4,141 bases of DNA from a virus (lineage: Duplodnaviria; Heunggongvirae; Uroviricota; Caudoviricetes): the IMG/VR virus record IMGVR_UViG_2671181106_000002; one strand, given 5' to 3'. Numbering within the stretch: the stretch's first letter is position 1; every line of letters starts with the position of its first letter. Below are positions 1 to 4,141 of the stretch, piece by piece. Both the position numbers and the translations under genes were made by a program. Below the pieces are notes generated by a model that did no database searches, had not been told where the DNA came from, and worked only from the letters and a program-made list of their open reading frames with translations.

Positions 1-959
1 TTCCCGAGAGTGGTAAAGGAGAGGCCCTGGAAATACCCCACAGCCCCGAAAAAGAGCCAGTCAGTTGCTTAACTGACTGGCATTACAGCAAACTGGAGGA
101 GTTTTCGAAAGAGTGGAAAGACGCCAACGATAAATGGAATGCCATGTGGGGCGTCAAAATTGAGCAGACCGAAGACGGCAGGCATTATGTCGCGGGTATT
201 GGCCTCAGCATGGAGGATACGGAGGAAGGCAAACTGAGCCAGTTCCTGGTTGCCGCTAACCGTATCGCGTTTATTGACCCGGCAAACGGGAGTGAAACGC
301 CGATGTTTGTGGCGCAGGGCAACCAGATATTCATGAACGAAGTGTTCCTGAAGTATCTGACGGCTCCCACCATTACCAGCGGCGGCAATCCGCCGGTATT
401 TTCCCTGACACCGGACGGGCGGTTGACGGCGAAAAATGCCGATATCAGCGGTAACGTGAATGCGAACTCAGGGACGCTCAATAATGTCACGATTAACCAG
501 AACTGTCGGATTCTGGGAAAACTGTCTGCCAACCAGATTGAAGGTGATATTGTCAAAACGGTGGGAAAAGCCTTTCCGAGAAATGGCAGTTATGCCAGCG
601 GTACAATAACGGTCACTGTGTACGATGACCAGGCTTTTGACCGTCAGATAGTAATCCCACCCGTTCTGTTTCGCGGTGGTAAGCATGAAAACTTCAACAG
701 CAACAACCAACAGTCATACTGGTATTCAACCTGTAAGCTGCAGGTACTGAAGAACGGACAGGAAATCTTTCAGCAACCCGCGACGGATGTCAGCAGGGTA
801 TTTTCATCCGTCATTGATATGCCAGCGGGACACGGCCATGTCACCCTGACTTTCAATGTTTCTTCATATGGTGCAAATAACTGGACGCCAACGACCAGTA
901 TCAGCGACCTTCTTGTTGTCGTGATGAAGAAATCAACAGCCGGTATCAGTATCAGTTGA
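1..959 (+). CDS. J: Central tail fibre / host specificity protein J, C-terminal part (5'-truncated by window edge)
   Basis: Frame 3 is open from position 3 with no stop until TGA at 957-959; the listed ORF 144..959 is only the part after the first in-frame ATG. The translation ([48 protein letters not shown]...[15 protein letters not shown]...IDMPAG.G...) matches my recollection of the C-terminal receptor-binding region of phage lambda gpJ, including its characteristic ending (...KK...GISI/V). The last ~170 residues look more diverged than the first part. Confidence 0.9.
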
Positions 960-977
960 ATTTTATAACCCAAATAC

Positions 978-1006
978 GGGCGCCAGAAATGGCGCCTTTT
1001 TTATTT
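978..1006 (+). terminator. Rho-independent terminator downstream of J (tJ-like)
   Basis: Perfect 6-bp GC-rich inverted repeat GGCGCC (979-984) / GGCGCC (991-996) with a 6-nt loop AGAAAT, followed directly by TTTTTTATTT (997-1006). It lies 20 nt after the J stop codon. Confidence 0.7.
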
Positions 1007-1017
1007 GTGGAGTGAAT

Positions 1018-3078
1018 ATGGCAGTACAGATTTCAGGCGTGCTGAAAGACGGTGCAGGAAAACCAATACAGAACTGTACTATTCAGCTCAAAGCAAAGCG
1101 TAACAGCACCACGGTACTGGTGAACACGGTGGCCTCTGAAAATCCGGATGAAGCCGGGCGTTACAGCATGGATGTTGAGTATGGCCAGTACAGCGTCACC
1201 CTGCTGGTTGAAGGTTTTCCGCCTTCACATGCCGGGACCATTACCGTCTATGAAGGCTCCAGACCAGGTACGCTGAATGATTTTCTCGGTGCCATGACGG
1301 AAGATGATGTCATGCCGGAGGCATTGCGTCGTTTTGAGGTAATGGTGGAGGATGTGGCACGCAACGCTGAAGCCGCCTCTCAGAGCGCAGCGGCAGCAAA
1401 GAAATCAGAAACAGCAGCGGCATCGTCCAGGAACGCGGCGAAAACATCAGAGACGAATGCAGGTAACAGCGCGAAAGCGGCAGCTTCTTCAAAAACAGCC
1501 GCACAAAACGCAGCAACAGCGGCAGAACGTTCAGAGACAAATGCCCGTGCGTCAGAAGAAGCCTCCGCAGACAGTGAAGAGGCTTCCCGCCGTAATGCAG
1601 AGTCAGCCGCTGAAAATGCCGGAGTCGCCACCACAAAAGCGCGGGAGGCTGCAGCAGACGCAACAAAGGCCGGGCAGAAAAAGGATGAGGCTCTGTCGGC
1701 AGCGACACGAGCTGAAAAGGCGGCAGACCGCGCAGAAGCCGCAGCGGAAGTGACTGCAGAGCCCTATGCGAATATAGTGCCGCCGCTGCCTGATGTGTGG
1801 ATACCGTTTAACGATTCACTGGATATGATTGCGGGTTTTTCTCCGGGCTATAAAAAAATAGCTATTGGTGACGATGTGGTTCAGGTCGCCAGTGATAAAC
1901 AGGTTAATTTCAGTCGCGCATCAACGGCAACATATATCAACAAATCTGGCGAACTGAAAACGGCGGAAATTAATGAGCCGCGATTTGAGTGTGATGGCCT
2001 GCTTATTGAGGGACAAAGAACGAACTACATGCTCAATTCGGAAAGTCCAGCCAGCTGGGGGAAGTCATCAAACATGGATGTGCCCGAAACCGGGACGGAT
2101 AGTTTTGGTTTTACTTATGGAAAGTTTGTCTGCAACGATTCTCTGGTTGGGCAAACTTCGGCTATTAATATGGCATCAATTGCTGCAACAAAGTCAGTTG
2201 ATGTCTCAGGCGATAACAAGTACGTGACAACCTCATGCCGTTTTAAAACAGAACGACAGGTAAGGTTACGTATACGGTTTGATAAGTATGATGGTAGTGC
2301 AACAACTTTTCTTGGCGATGCGTACATTGATACGCAAACGCTTGAAATTAATATGACAGGTGGTGCTGCCGGCAGAATTACGGCACGAGTCAGGAAGGAT
2401 AAGACCACGGGCTGGATTTTTGCAGAGGCAACGATTCAGGCAATTGATGGTGAGTTAAAAATAGGCTCTCAGATACAGTATTCTCCTGAGCAGGGTGGGG
2501 CAACAGTATCTGGTGACTATATTTATCTTGCCACCCCACAAGTAGAGAATGGGCCGTGTGTATCATCATTTATTATTTCAGGAGGCAGCGCAACGACAAG
2601 AGCCAGTGATTTGGTTAGTATCCCCACCAGAAATAATCTTTATAAGTTACCATTTACTTTTTTACTTGAGATTCATAAAAACTGGGATATTGCACCAAAC
2701 GCCGCACCCCGCGTGTGGGATATAGCAGCAGCCAATACCGGGCAATCAGCAATTGCAGCAATCAACAGAGGTAGTGGTAAGTTATATATGAGTCTGTCAA
2801 ACCCTTCAGGCTCGTATGTTAATAGCGCAGCGACAGATGTATTTGCAGAGAAAACCACATTTGGATGTATTGCAAAAGCTGATGGTCACTTTCATGTGGT
2901 GACAAATGGTAAAGCGGTTAATGAAGTTTATTGTGAATATAATGGCGTGACCGCTGATAAAAATATCCGATTTGGAGGGCAGACGAATACTGGAGAACGA
3001 CATCTGTTTGGCCATATTCGCAATTTCCGCATATGGCATAAAGAATTAAATGACAGGCAATTAAAAGAGGTCGTATGA
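1018..3078 (+). CDS. stf: Side tail fibre protein (Stf-like) with mosaic C-terminal receptor-binding module
   Basis: 686-codon ORF. ATG at 1018 is preceded by GGAG (1009-1012) with a 5-nt spacer; the track's ORF begins 6 nt earlier at an in-frame GTG (1012). N-terminus MAVQISGVLKDGAGKPIQNCTIQLKA...GRYSMDVEYGQYSV...FPPSHAGTITVYE resembles the conserved N-terminal domain of lambda Stf / lambdoid side tail fibres as I recall it. It is followed by an Ala/Ser/Glu-rich region with KTSETNA / RSETNA motifs, also Stf-like. The C-terminal ~440 aa are unrelated to the Gly/His-rich lambda Stf C-terminus. Stop TGA at 3076-3078. Confidence 0.9.
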   Translation: MAVQISGVLKDGAGKPIQNCTIQLKAKRNSTTVLVNTVASENPDEAGRYSMDVEYGQYSVTLLVEGFPPSHAGTITVYEGSRPGTLNDFLGAMTEDDVMPEALRRFEVMVEDVARNAEAASQSAAAAKKSETAAASSRNAAKTSETNAGNSAKAAASSKTAAQNAATAAERSETNARASEEASADSEEASRRNAESAAENAGVATTKAREAAADATKAGQKKDEALSAATRAEKAADRAEAAAEVTAEPYANIVPPLPDVWIPFNDSLDMIAGFSPGYKKIAIGDDVVQVASDKQVNFSRASTATYINKSGELKTAEINEPRFECDGLLIEGQRTNYMLNSESPASWGKSSNMDVPETGTDSFGFTYGKFVCNDSLVGQTSAINMASIAATKSVDVSGDNKYVTTSCRFKTERQVRLRIRFDKYDGSATTFLGDAYIDTQTLEINMTGGAAGRITARVRKDKTTGWIFAEATIQAIDGELKIGSQIQYSPEQGGATVSGDYIYLATPQVENGPCVSSFIISGGSATTRASDLVSIPTRNNLYKLPFTFLLEIHKNWDIAPNAAPRVWDIAAANTGQSAIAAINRGSGKLYMSLSNPSGSYVNSAATDVFAEKTTFGCIAKADGHFHVVTNGKAVNEVYCEYNGVTADKNIRFGGQTNTGERHLFGHIRNFRIWHKELNDRQLKEVV
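1354..1750 (+). repeat. Low-complexity Ala/Ser/Glu-rich degenerate repeat region inside stf (fibre shaft)
   Basis: The protein segment ...EAASQSAAAAKKSETAAASSRNAAKTSETNAGNSAKAAASSKTAAQNAATAAERSETNARASEEAS... has recurring GCx/TCx/GAx codons and repeated DNA words (tcagagacGaatgc at ~1447 and tcagagacAaatgc at ~1533). The region is open in several frames on both strands, which explains the overlapping shadow ORFs 1352..1753 (+), 1310..1708 (-) and 1380..1634 (-). Confidence 0.7.
2540..3075 (+). other. Probable concanavalin A-like / LamG-like lectin domain at the Stf C-terminus (domain annotation inside stf)
   Basis: The C-terminal segment ...GHFHVVTNGKAVNEVYCEYNGVTADKNIRFGGQTNTGERHLFGHIRNFRIWHKELNDRQLKEVV follows the characteristic end pattern of LamG/ConA-like jellyroll domains (core strand 'HxxVVxxG', then 'xxFxGxIxxxRIY/WxxxLxxxEI/L'). 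This is motif-level recognition only and the domain start is approximate. Confidence 0.45.
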
Positions 3079-3353
3079 AAGATTTAACTTTGAAGTTTCA
3101 TGACAAACTGCAGTTTAAGGCCTTCCTGTCATCTCTTGGCTGGGCGGAAGATGAAGACCTCCAGAATAAACTGTTAGTTGATGAAATTGGTTTCACCTAC
3201 ACAGAAACAGGGGTAACAGAAGAGGGAGAACCTGTCTGTATCCGGAATGATGGTTATTTTGTCAACATTCGCATTCTTGATGACTTGTTTGATGTTTCTG
3301 TATTCTCTGATTATGTCGTGGAGCTGGAAACACCGCTTCGGGAATGGAGCTGA
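3075..3353 (+). CDS. Hypothetical small acidic protein (92 aa), translationally coupled to stf; function unknown
   Basis: The ATG at 3075-3077 overlaps the stf stop (ATGA overlap). AAGAGG (3064-3069) lies 5 nt upstream. The ORF ends at TGA 3351-3353. The product MKDLTLKFHDKLQFKAFLSSLGWAEDEDLQNK... is acidic with no hydrophobic segment. Its AT-rich composition matches the 3' part of stf. It does not resemble the lambda Tfa N-terminus as I recall it. Confidence 0.7.
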   Translation: MKDLTLKFHDKLQFKAFLSSLGWAEDEDLQNKLLVDEIGFTYTETGVTEEGEPVCIRNDGYFVNIRILDDLFDVSVFSDYVVELETPLREWS

Positions 3354-3360
3354 AAGGAGG
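3354..3360 (+). promoter_or_regulatory. Shine-Dalgarno sequence for the downstream membrane-protein ORF
   Basis: AAGGAGG at 3354-3360, then a 5-nt spacer (AAATA) and ATG at 3366. It sits immediately after the orf92 stop, giving an operon-like arrangement. Confidence 0.8.
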
Positions 3361-3365
3361 AAATA

Positions 3366-3806
3366 ATGGATATAAGCCCCTTACTTCATGCACTTTGTGC
3401 TGTGGCTGCGCAGATACTGGTTGGTCTTTTTACCGGAAACTGGGCTTACGGAGCGATAGCCGGTTGTACGTTCTTCATTGCGCGTGAACATACCCAGGCA
3501 GAATATCGCTGGATTGAAATGTTCGGGCATGGCAAGCGAATGAATATGCCGTGGTGGGGCGGTTTTGATCCGCGTGCTTGGGATGTGGCAAGCCTGATGG
3601 ATTTTGCTGTGCCGGTGGTGGCGTGTCTGCTGGTCTGGCTGTTGGTTAATCGTGGGCGAAAAAAGGTGAGCTGTATATGCAACGGAGGAAGAAACCCCGT
3701 TGCTGGAAGCCAGGAAAAAGTATCGGGTGTTGCTGTCCTCGGATGTTGTGCTAATTGGGTGATAACAGATCCTGTGTATGGGAGTTTCCCTTTTTGCGTG
3801 CGTTGA
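3366..3806 (+). CDS. Hypothetical small membrane protein (predicted 2-3 transmembrane segments); C-terminal extent uncertain
   Basis: Strong RBS. Hydrophobic stretches at about residues 8-40 (LHALCAVAAQILVGLFTGNWAYGAIAGCTFFIA) and 73-95 (WDVASLMDFAVPVVACLLVWLLV) are followed by basic NRGRKK. The GC-richer composition differs from orf92. The final ~45 codons (VSCICNGGRNPVAGSQEK...FCVR) have an atypical Cys/Gly-rich composition and overlap the 3' end of the convergent permease gene, so the true C-terminus may be shorter or the ORF may be junction-derived. Confidence 0.6.
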   Translation: MDISPLLHALCAVAAQILVGLFTGNWAYGAIAGCTFFIAREHTQAEYRWIEMFGHGKRMNMPWWGGFDPRAWDVASLMDFAVPVVACLLVWLLVNRGRKKVSCICNGGRNPVAGSQEKVSGVAVLGCCANWVITDPVYGSFPFCVR

Positions 3807-4141
3807 TGCTGGTAACGGCAAACGTCATGATGAACAAAACCGCGAATAAGACGACAATCGTCGGAGCTGGTGCGCTGTCGATAAAAAAGGACAACCAGAC
3901 ACCAGTCATTGACACTATTACCGATATGCCAGTCGCCAGTAGGAGCGCAATATGAAAGCGTTGTGTCAGGAGTACCGCAATGGCGCCAGGCGCAATGAGC
4001 AGAGAAATGGAGAGAATGATACCTACCGCTTTCAGCGTCGCCACAATGGTCAGAGAGACCATGCACAGCAGCCCATAATGCAGCCATCTCGTATGCAAAC
4101 CGCTTACCTGCGCCTGTTGATAATCAAAGCTAAACTGCATA
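3751..4141 (-). CDS. sitD: ABC-3 family metal (Mn2+/Fe2+) transporter permease, C-terminal part; SitD-like (5' end lies beyond the window)
   Basis: The minus-strand ORF is open to the window edge, with stop TAG (complement of 3751-3753). The translation ...LHTRWLHYGLLCMVSLTIVATLKAVGIILSISLLIAPGAIAVLLTQRFHIA...FFIDSAPAPTIVVLFAVLFIMTF... has the characteristic C-terminal pattern of ZnuB/MntB/SitD-type permeases (compare ZnuB ...VGALIITSLLIIPAATAR...YDTPAGPSVVLCAALLFIL). sit operons are known to lie next to lambdoid prophage DNA in E. coli/Shigella. The sitD assignment is from memory, not a search. Confidence 0.65.
   Translation of the reverse strand, partial: MQFSFDYQQAQVSGLHTRWLHYGLLCMVSLTIVATLKAVGIILSISLLIAPGAIAVLLTQRFHIALLLATGISVIVSMTGVWLSFFIDSAPAPTIVVLFAVLFIMTFAVTSINARKKGNSHTQDLLSPN

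Follow-up and report, generated by a model that had tools for sequence, protein, structure and literature searches.

The O-antigen or capsule types that a phage can approach are determined by its side or lateral tail fibres, whose tips are the most frequently swapped parts in natural phages as well as in engineered phages and delivery vectors. Lambda Tfa, Mu gpU and P2 gpG (Pfam Caudo_TAP) are reportedly tail-fibre assembly proteins, and Tfa-type proteins may remain bound to the fibre tip. The T4 chaperones gp38 and gp57A and the gp38 adhesins of the T2/S16 type are small accessory proteins that are needed for, or bound to, the fibre tip. Proteins with a DUF4376 domain form another type, represented by gp27 of Alteromonas phage V22 and gp9 of phage A5, each the cognate chaperone of its tail fibre. 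Active V22 fibres cannot be produced without gp27, and A5 fibres function with or without gp9 (PMC7289586; PMC10579305). AlphaFold models of the V22 and A5 chaperones have beta-strands, lacking in intramolecular chaperone domains, that extend the sheet of the fibre head and a helical body that resembles intramolecular chaperones (PMC7289586; PMC10579305). Here we describe orf92, an open reading frame (ORF) of 92 codons that directly follows the side-fibre gene stf in a stretch of 4,141 nucleotides (nt) from the Caudoviricetes record IMGVR_UViG_2671181106_000002 of IMG/VR; this whole stretch is called the window below. Its product is very probably a dedicated fibre-associated protein that acts either in tip assembly or capping or as an adaptor for a distal fibre.

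Tfa-type proteins resemble orf92 in that their gene lies right after the side-fibre gene, and they are modular, with one tip-specific and one general part. However, orf92 is about half the size of lambda Tfa, Mu gpU and P2 gpG, and it matches them neither in sequence nor in fold among Protein Data Bank (PDB) structures. Neither sequence nor fold similarity was detected to T4 gp38 and gp57A or to gp38 of the T2/S16 type, and gp57A, unlike orf92, is encoded away from the fibre gene. Intramolecular Peptidase_S74 chaperone domains share with the role proposed for orf92 the maturation of a fibre tip, but orf92 is a separate polypeptide. A search of Pfam found no Peptidase_S74 domain in Stf or in orf92; this domain occurs only in distal fibre genes of other phages. 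DUF4376 chaperones are, like orf92, encoded directly downstream of the fibre gene, and they differ in having the helical body, the proposed trimerising and intramolecular-chaperone-like part that orf92 lacks. The joints of composite fibres, such as the gp35/gp36 knee of T4 and the LtfA-LtfB branching of phage DT57C, are comparable to the many phages in which orf92 sits between a proximal and a distal fibre gene, whereas orf92 is kept also where the distal fibre is absent. The DT57C branching has no homology to orf92, and the accessible parts of its descriptions name no small intermediary protein (PMC4728585; PMC10713586).

Database searches placed orf92 in none of the known families of fibre helpers. 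No significant match was found in Pfam, NCBIfam or PADLOC, and orf92 together with 32 members of its family gave no match to any Pfam family, Caudo_TAP (Tfa) included, at E values up to 0.1. With the structural model of orf92 as query, Foldseek returned nothing from the PDB at E < 0.01 and no convincing solved relative, and a fold search of BFVD returned uncharacterised phage proteins only, without a functional lead. It lies outside the Tfa/Caudo_TAP, gp38, gp57A, S74 and DUF4376 families, since it was tested for the sequence features that define each of them and has none. This agrees with a first-pass annotation of the window, made from the sequence alone, which had seen no likeness to Tfa, gp38 or gp57A; nor did a confident homology to some unrelated family emerge. 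In the literature on phage 21 and sitABCD, lateral-fibre chaperones, LtfA/LtfB, DUF4376 and the head spike, we found no paper that discusses an orf92-type protein. Homologues in the BASEL genome records are labelled 'hypothetical protein' or, in IrisVonRoten, 'tail fiber protein'.

By profile comparison, orf92 is a member of PHROG 1361 (sister PHROG 18574; VOG7707), a group of small, uncharacterised phage proteins. Its match to phrog_1361 covers residues 1-91 of a 92-position profile (E 3.2e-42), and the sister profile phrog_18574 is matched at E 1.7e-6. Homologues were found by tblastn in 147 phage records, and a tail-fibre gene adjoins in every annotated row among the matches listed. A profile search of 1.84 billion representative sequences returned only 80 proteins at 50% identity, and the genuine ones are nearly all 85-110 amino acids (aa) long. 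Large repeat proteins from the same search (PKD-like, TPR; P0064, P0072, P0097 and others) were rejected on reading their sequences as artefacts of repeats or composition. The ratio of nonsynonymous to synonymous substitution rates (dN/dS) of orf92 against close and distant homologues was 0.10-0.35 wherever dS was unsaturated, and 0.22-0.35 within the phage-21-type lambdoid lineage. orf92 is a real gene under purifying selection. Among 56 distinct lambdoid pairs of fibre and small ORF, one (L031, 5001-5033) has its orf92 homologue interrupted by a nonsense codon at position 11.

Several features of the gene had been read correctly in the first-pass annotation. The start codon of orf92 overlaps the stop codon of stf (ATGA), and it has its own Shine-Dalgarno sequence, AAGAGG, at a place where the phage 21 record annotates a ribosome-binding site. 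The base composition of orf92 (G+C fraction 0.419) is like that of the C-terminal module of Stf (0.432 for positions 1798-3078) and unlike that of its surroundings, namely the N-terminal part of Stf (0.558) and the next ORF (0.529). The three genes from stf to the ORF after orf92 are not separated by any terminator; a convincing one was found only upstream, after gene J. The predicted protein is acidic (pI 4.2) and has neither a signal peptide nor a transmembrane segment. Its AlphaFold2 (AF2) model is of high confidence (mean predicted local distance difference test score, pLDDT, 90.5) and shows a small alpha/beta protein with a five-stranded sheet and helices. The most conserved elements are the beta-strand GYFVNIR and the C-terminal P-x-R-x-W tail, the latter modelled at lower confidence, a pattern typical of docking elements.

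The stf gene encodes a protein of 686 aa from an ATG at 1018; the ORF list starts it earlier, at a GTG at 1012 (688 aa). Its C-terminal module of about 430 aa consists of two lobes and ends in a conserved RHLFGHIRNFRIWHK motif. The first lobe matches NCBIfam GTA_spike_fiber (aa 329-529, nt 2002-2604; E 8.6e-15), and a profile of the module matches the solved structure of the RcGTA head-spike fibre Rcc01080 (PDB 6TB9; E 1.1e-19). The second lobe is LamG/ConA-like (aa 560-681, nt 2695-3060) and matches Pfam Laminin_G_3 with a score under the gathering threshold (E 2.3e-5). The fold assignment rests on the 6TB9 profile match together with Pfam and NCBIfam, and not on the AF2 model of the module. 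According to the BASEL authors, the tip of IrisVonRoten Gp22, a homologue of the Stf C-terminal module, is a protruding galectin-like domain (PMC11990801). IrisVonRoten (Bas32) is able to infect K-12 in which the O16 O-antigen has been restored, presumably by means of its lateral fibres (PMC8594841). The lectin-type tip seen in the first-pass annotation is thus a reasonable description of the second lobe, given this tip and the weak Laminin_G_3 match. Alignment of the module shows conserved blocks at residues 257-340, 499-562 and 637-686, with variable stretches between them. The module is mobile: in other fibres it stands behind different anchors at the N terminus (PF12571, PF03406, that of T5 Ltf and a 1479-aa Vequintavirus fibre). 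The phage record Lambda_4C10 (L108, 1417-3833) and one prophage locus (L018) have insertion sequences (IS) close to the 3' end of stf, which indicates that the Stf side fibre is dispensable under some conditions.

The pairing of this module with orf92 was followed in both directions. Forward, the module lies directly upstream of orf92 in 85 of 85 loci fetched with orf92. The start codon of the small ORF and the stop codon of the fibre gene overlap in 89 of 91 loci, with 4 nt shared in 85 of them and 1 nt in the other four. For the reverse direction, an alignment of the module was scanned against one genome per species, and 13 loci were returned. All nine loci with a complete two-lobed module have a member of the orf92 family just downstream of the fibre gene: two in E. 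ruysiae, three in Leclercia and one each in Silvania, Buttiauxella, Aeromonas and a Collinsella-binned contig. Identity of the module is only 28-32% in the Leclercia, Silvania, Buttiauxella and Aeromonas prophages, and the family member is still downstream; only in the Aeromonas locus are fibre gene and small ORF set apart, by about 220 nt. Three alphaproteobacterial loci with the GTA-like first lobe only (L099, L101 and L104) have no adjoining relative of orf92, and there is no orf92-like gene among the neighbours of gp56 of Rhodobacter phage RcWaterboi, which also has the first lobe only. Since loci with the first lobe alone are without an orf92 relative, orf92 tracks the module and, more precisely, its second lobe. 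The check across genomes that the first-pass annotation had proposed was therefore passed in both directions, and complete modules without a downstream homologue were not found among the nine.

The pair of module and orf92 is present in at least six phage groups: lambdoid phages, Drexlerviridae, Dhillonvirus, Seuratvirus, Tequintavirus and Vequintavirus. In Vequintavirus the family member, at the same coupled position, is divergent and 110 aa long, and the sister type, PHROG 18574, is found in some T5-like phages. The module is also present in records named 'Campylobacter phage C13/C14' or 'Listeria phage LM 4-xx' (MG065692, MG065653, OR848352 and OR847733). These records and the Collinsella-binned contig (L094) look like mislabelled or contaminant sequences.

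Pairing of the two genes does not mean that they have travelled as one unit. In loci L025 and L029, orf92 is 99% identical and the module 44% identical (41% in its last 130 residues), and within a class of orf92 sequences that are 90% identical, the modules range from about 44% to 87% identity. Conservation is thus much higher in orf92 than in the fibre tip, and tips are exchanged upstream of a conserved orf92. The proposal in the first-pass annotation that both were acquired together therefore needs some qualification. On these comparisons, orf92 behaves as a conserved flank; if it binds the fibre, its partner would be the conserved scaffold and not the variable surfaces. When orf92 was compared with segments of Stf, co-variation was highest (r about 0.8) at the two conserved ends of the module; it was not used as evidence for an interface because linkage and shared ancestry explain it as well as contact does.

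A link to known fibre chaperones came from the thirteenth locus of the reverse scan, a Noviherbaspirillum prophage (L100). Its fibre of 315 aa, in which both lobes are reduced, is followed by an ORF of about 204 aa (3888-4499). Residues 90-195 of this ORF are a DUF4376 domain (E 4.9e-24), and the profile of the orf92 family aligns with residues 1-84 (hhalign probability 98%, E 2.5e-13) across the GY-x-x-N-x-R strand and the P-x-R tail. With two further proteins, P0117 and P0118, this architecture of an orf92-like domain and DUF4376 is represented by P0116-P0118 (203-206 aa; hmmsearch E 1e-11 to 6e-14 for the orf92-like domain), and P0118, from metagenomic locus L105, follows a 314-aa protein in which the module was recognised with an hhalign probability of 99.4%. 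Neither the N-terminal domain of V22 gp27 nor the V22 fibre is related to its counterpart here, orf92 and the Stf C-terminal module respectively; this fits a modular design of a general body and a head specific to the fibre type. The natural fusion suggests that DUF4376 chaperones consist of a general body with exchangeable, fibre-specific heads. In L100 the fusion is followed by a 149-aa ORF (4506-4955), and in V22 (L110) the order is fibre, gp27 and a permuted papain-like amidase. The third genes of the two loci have weak similarity (E 4e-4), which weakly suggests that the loci are equivalent. In the Burkholderiales fusion loci, lysis genes come next and there is no distal fibre gene.

Our preferred reading, held tentatively and with somewhat less than even confidence, is that orf92 binds the fibre tip as an assembly or cap protein and is specific to the module's LamG-like lobe. 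As a small, acidic, cytoplasmic alpha/beta protein, it would be made in step with Stf through translational coupling. It would bind the conserved scaffold of the second, LamG-like lobe and aid folding and assembly of the tip as an intermolecular chaperone, and it may stay on as a cap. It may represent a free-standing equivalent of the N-terminal fibre-recognition domain of DUF4376-type chaperones, without their trimerising helical body. Stf would already trimerise through its long Ala-rich coiled coil, and the helical body would perhaps not be needed. Conservation of orf92 above that of the variable tip regions is expected for a partner of a conserved scaffold. The proposal of the first-pass annotation that orf92 is an assembly or folding factor or an accessory protein of the fibre is supported by the pairing and by the DUF4376 fusion, and the findings that might have spoken against it did not appear. 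The function itself, with physical binding to the tip, the lobe that is bound and the effect on folding, we infer from sequence comparison.

Some points weigh against an assembly or cap protein at the tip. The AF2 model of the Stf module alone is unusable (pLDDT 49; the alignment was shallow, at 61-100% identity). The orf92-like domain is present in only three of 120 DUF4376 relatives, and no DUF4376 domain was found in orf92 itself with Pfam. The Stf-type fibre is dispensable for plaque formation (Lambda_4C10), and a strong orf92 phenotype is therefore not guaranteed. In addition, the fibre gene that follows orf92 in many phages, with an N-terminal motif that co-varies with the small-ORF subtype, fits a structural adaptor at least as well.

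Such an adaptor, or 'knee', would sit on the Stf tip in the virion and serve as a socket for the N-terminal docking peptide of a distal fibre, which would give a branched or jointed side fibre. The distal fibre gene would have been lost in phage-21-type prophages, with orf92 persisting as a tip subunit. We consider this the main alternative, less likely than an assembly or cap protein at the tip. In many virulent phages and in some prophages, the small ORF is followed after 9-13 nt by the start of a further fibre-type gene. Its product carries Peptidase_S74 in KarlJaspers and tonn (224-225 aa), in IrisVonRoten, L6jm and AZ23 (574-705 aa) and in the E. ruysiae (L092) and Silvania (L102) prophages; phage rolling and a Leclercia prophage (L096) have Phage_tail_C_2 instead. 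BASEL labels the short S74 protein of KarlJaspers 'putative lateral tail fiber chaperone'. Although the rest of their sequence is unrelated, the distal proteins each start with one of two conserved motifs of about 15 aa, which are probably docking peptides. The motif M[AV]T.T[NV]IP.DIT.LK goes with small ORFs of the phrog_1361 type and MA[NL]R.D[ST]I.LT with those of the phrog_18574 type (loci L002, L005, L087, L088, L089, L091, L092, L096, L098, L102 and L103). However, this co-variation is inseparable from that of the Stf module, whose subtype changes simultaneously.

The gene order of L092 (Stf, small ORF, distal fibre, 97-aa membrane protein) is that of phage 21 with one gene added. A BASEL model attaches the distal protein Gp24 of IrisVonRoten to the proximal fibre Gp22, and the small protein Gp23 is not discussed in the accessible part of the text (PMC11990801). 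Virions of phage SIA3lw contain the proximal fibre and also the S74 protein, as seen by gel proteomics that covered bands of at least 19 kDa, above the 10-kDa size of orf92 (PMC12752171). It counts against an adaptor as the sole role that purifying selection keeps orf92 conserved in at least four settings that have no second, distal fibre gene: phage-21-type lambdoids (this window among them), Vequintavirus, the Mu-like Buttiauxella prophage L097 and the Burkholderiales fusions. The partner in those fusions, DUF4376, is also a chaperone domain and not a fibre domain. In a more specific form of the adaptor explanation, orf92 would be a retained virion subunit that, with the LamG-like lobe, forms a standard socket for the peptide of about 15 aa of unrelated distal fibres; we consider this form less likely than not. 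A tip partner and an adaptor are compatible if orf92 always binds the tip and additionally helps to dock a distal fibre where one is present.

An unrelated function appears improbable. orf92 could be a moron for lysogenic conversion or superinfection exclusion, an anti-defence protein or a regulator that hitch-hikes beside a recombination-prone tip, and its location beside cargo genes (a small membrane protein, sitABCD) at the end of the prophage, its lack of a recognisable domain and its position as the conserved flank of a highly mosaic region would agree with this. However, orf92 is present and coupled in strictly virulent phages of five groups that have no prophage cargo, always directly follows the same fibre module and is found nowhere else. 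In Burkholderiales phages a domain like orf92 forms one protein with a fibre-chaperone domain, and the absence of a PADLOC match, a signal peptide and a transmembrane segment also argues against such functions. Finally, orf92 is short and unnamed by any curated family, but a chance ORF in an AT-rich stretch is refuted by its full-length PHROG match, the 80 representatives of steady length, the low dN/dS and the confident AF2 fold.

The window is the end of a lambdoid prophage adjoining sitABCD, and the same arrangement is found in hundreds of E. coli genomes (Table 1). Phage 21 (Jouyvirus) has the identical gene order of J, terminator, stf, 92-aa ORF, 97-aa membrane protein and, on the other strand, sitDCBA, and its record annotates a terminator at the equivalent position after J. 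The iron/manganese transporter operon sitABCD is cargo of phage 21 and of related Jouyvirus and Bievrevirus phages, where it lies directly after stf, orf92 and orf97 (L004, L108 and L109). Because phage 21 and its relatives carry it there, the sit operon adjoining this prophage end is phage-borne. The prophage copy is defective, since IS4 truncates gene J (the J side of the window is 87-959). In NZ_CP033762 the coding sequence of the IS4 transposase ends at window position 72, and in the best-matching genome gene J is cut by IS4 immediately before the J fragment of the window. The majority of other genomes align to the window from base 86 only.

The gene after orf92 has no significant match in Pfam, NCBIfam or PADLOC. 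Its counterpart in phage 21 is a membrane protein of 97 aa with two transmembrane segments (phrog_1443). Alignment with phage 21 shows that the stop codon TGA reads CGA at 3657, which extends the gene from 97 to 146 aa, and the extended gene overlaps the 3' end of sitD on the opposite strand (3751-3806). The Ala-rich shaft of Stf (aa about 115-250, window 1360-1770) has a strong AT skew, which gives long spurious ORFs in other frames or on the opposite strand (1352-1753, 1310-1708 and 1380-1634).

Table 1. Features of the 4,141-nt window, with coordinates, strand and supporting evidence.
Feature	Position	Strand	Evidence
IS4 right end, truncating gene J	1-85	+	Transposase stop codon at 70-72
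C-terminal part of central tail fibre/host-specificity protein J	144-959	+	Pfam Ig_GpJ_C E 1.5e-38; Phage_Tail_Tip E 1.3e-29
Intrinsic terminator after J, start of stf-orf92-orf97 unit	978-1007	+	8-pair stem, then T run
Stf N-terminal anchor (PF08400) and Ala-rich coiled-coil shaft	1018-1785	+	Pfam phage_tail_N E 4.8e-67, aa 1-131
Stf C-terminal module, two lobes, aa 257-686, starting LPDVWIPFNDSL	1786-3078	+	
Shine-Dalgarno AAGAGG of orf92, within stf coding sequence	3065-3070	+	Four bases 5' of ATG
ATGA start/stop overlap, translational coupling	3075-3078	+	orf92 ATG 3075-3077, stf TGA 3076-3078
orf92, 92 aa, proposed fibre-tip accessory protein	3075-3353	+	phrog_1361, AF2 model, dN/dS
Shine-Dalgarno AAGGAGG of ORF after orf92	3354-3360	+	Sequence
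Third gene of unit, 146 aa here	3366-3806	+	phrog_1443 E 7.4e-58 over aa 1-96
sitD, remaining part of window	3751-4140	-	

Fibre genes with dedicated downstream helpers are well known, and the principle proposed here is not new. If the proposed role of orf92 is true, a family distinct in sequence and in fold is added to the known fibre accessory proteins. If the socket form of the adaptor explanation were true, fibres of lambdoid, T1-like and T5-like phages, Dhillonvirus and enterobacterial prophages would share a three-part plug-and-play branching system with two types of socket and plug, phrog_1361 with MxTxTxIPxDITxLK and phrog_18574 with MANRxDSIxLT. The module is widespread in coliphages and Salmonella phages, including phage 21, other lambdoids, T1-like, T5-like and rV5-like phages, Dhillonvirus and Seuratvirus. 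If orf92 is needed for folding of the tip or is part of it, prediction of host range from the fibre gene alone would miss a component and chimeric fibres would have to include orf92, with tip and orf92 moved together in fibre engineering.

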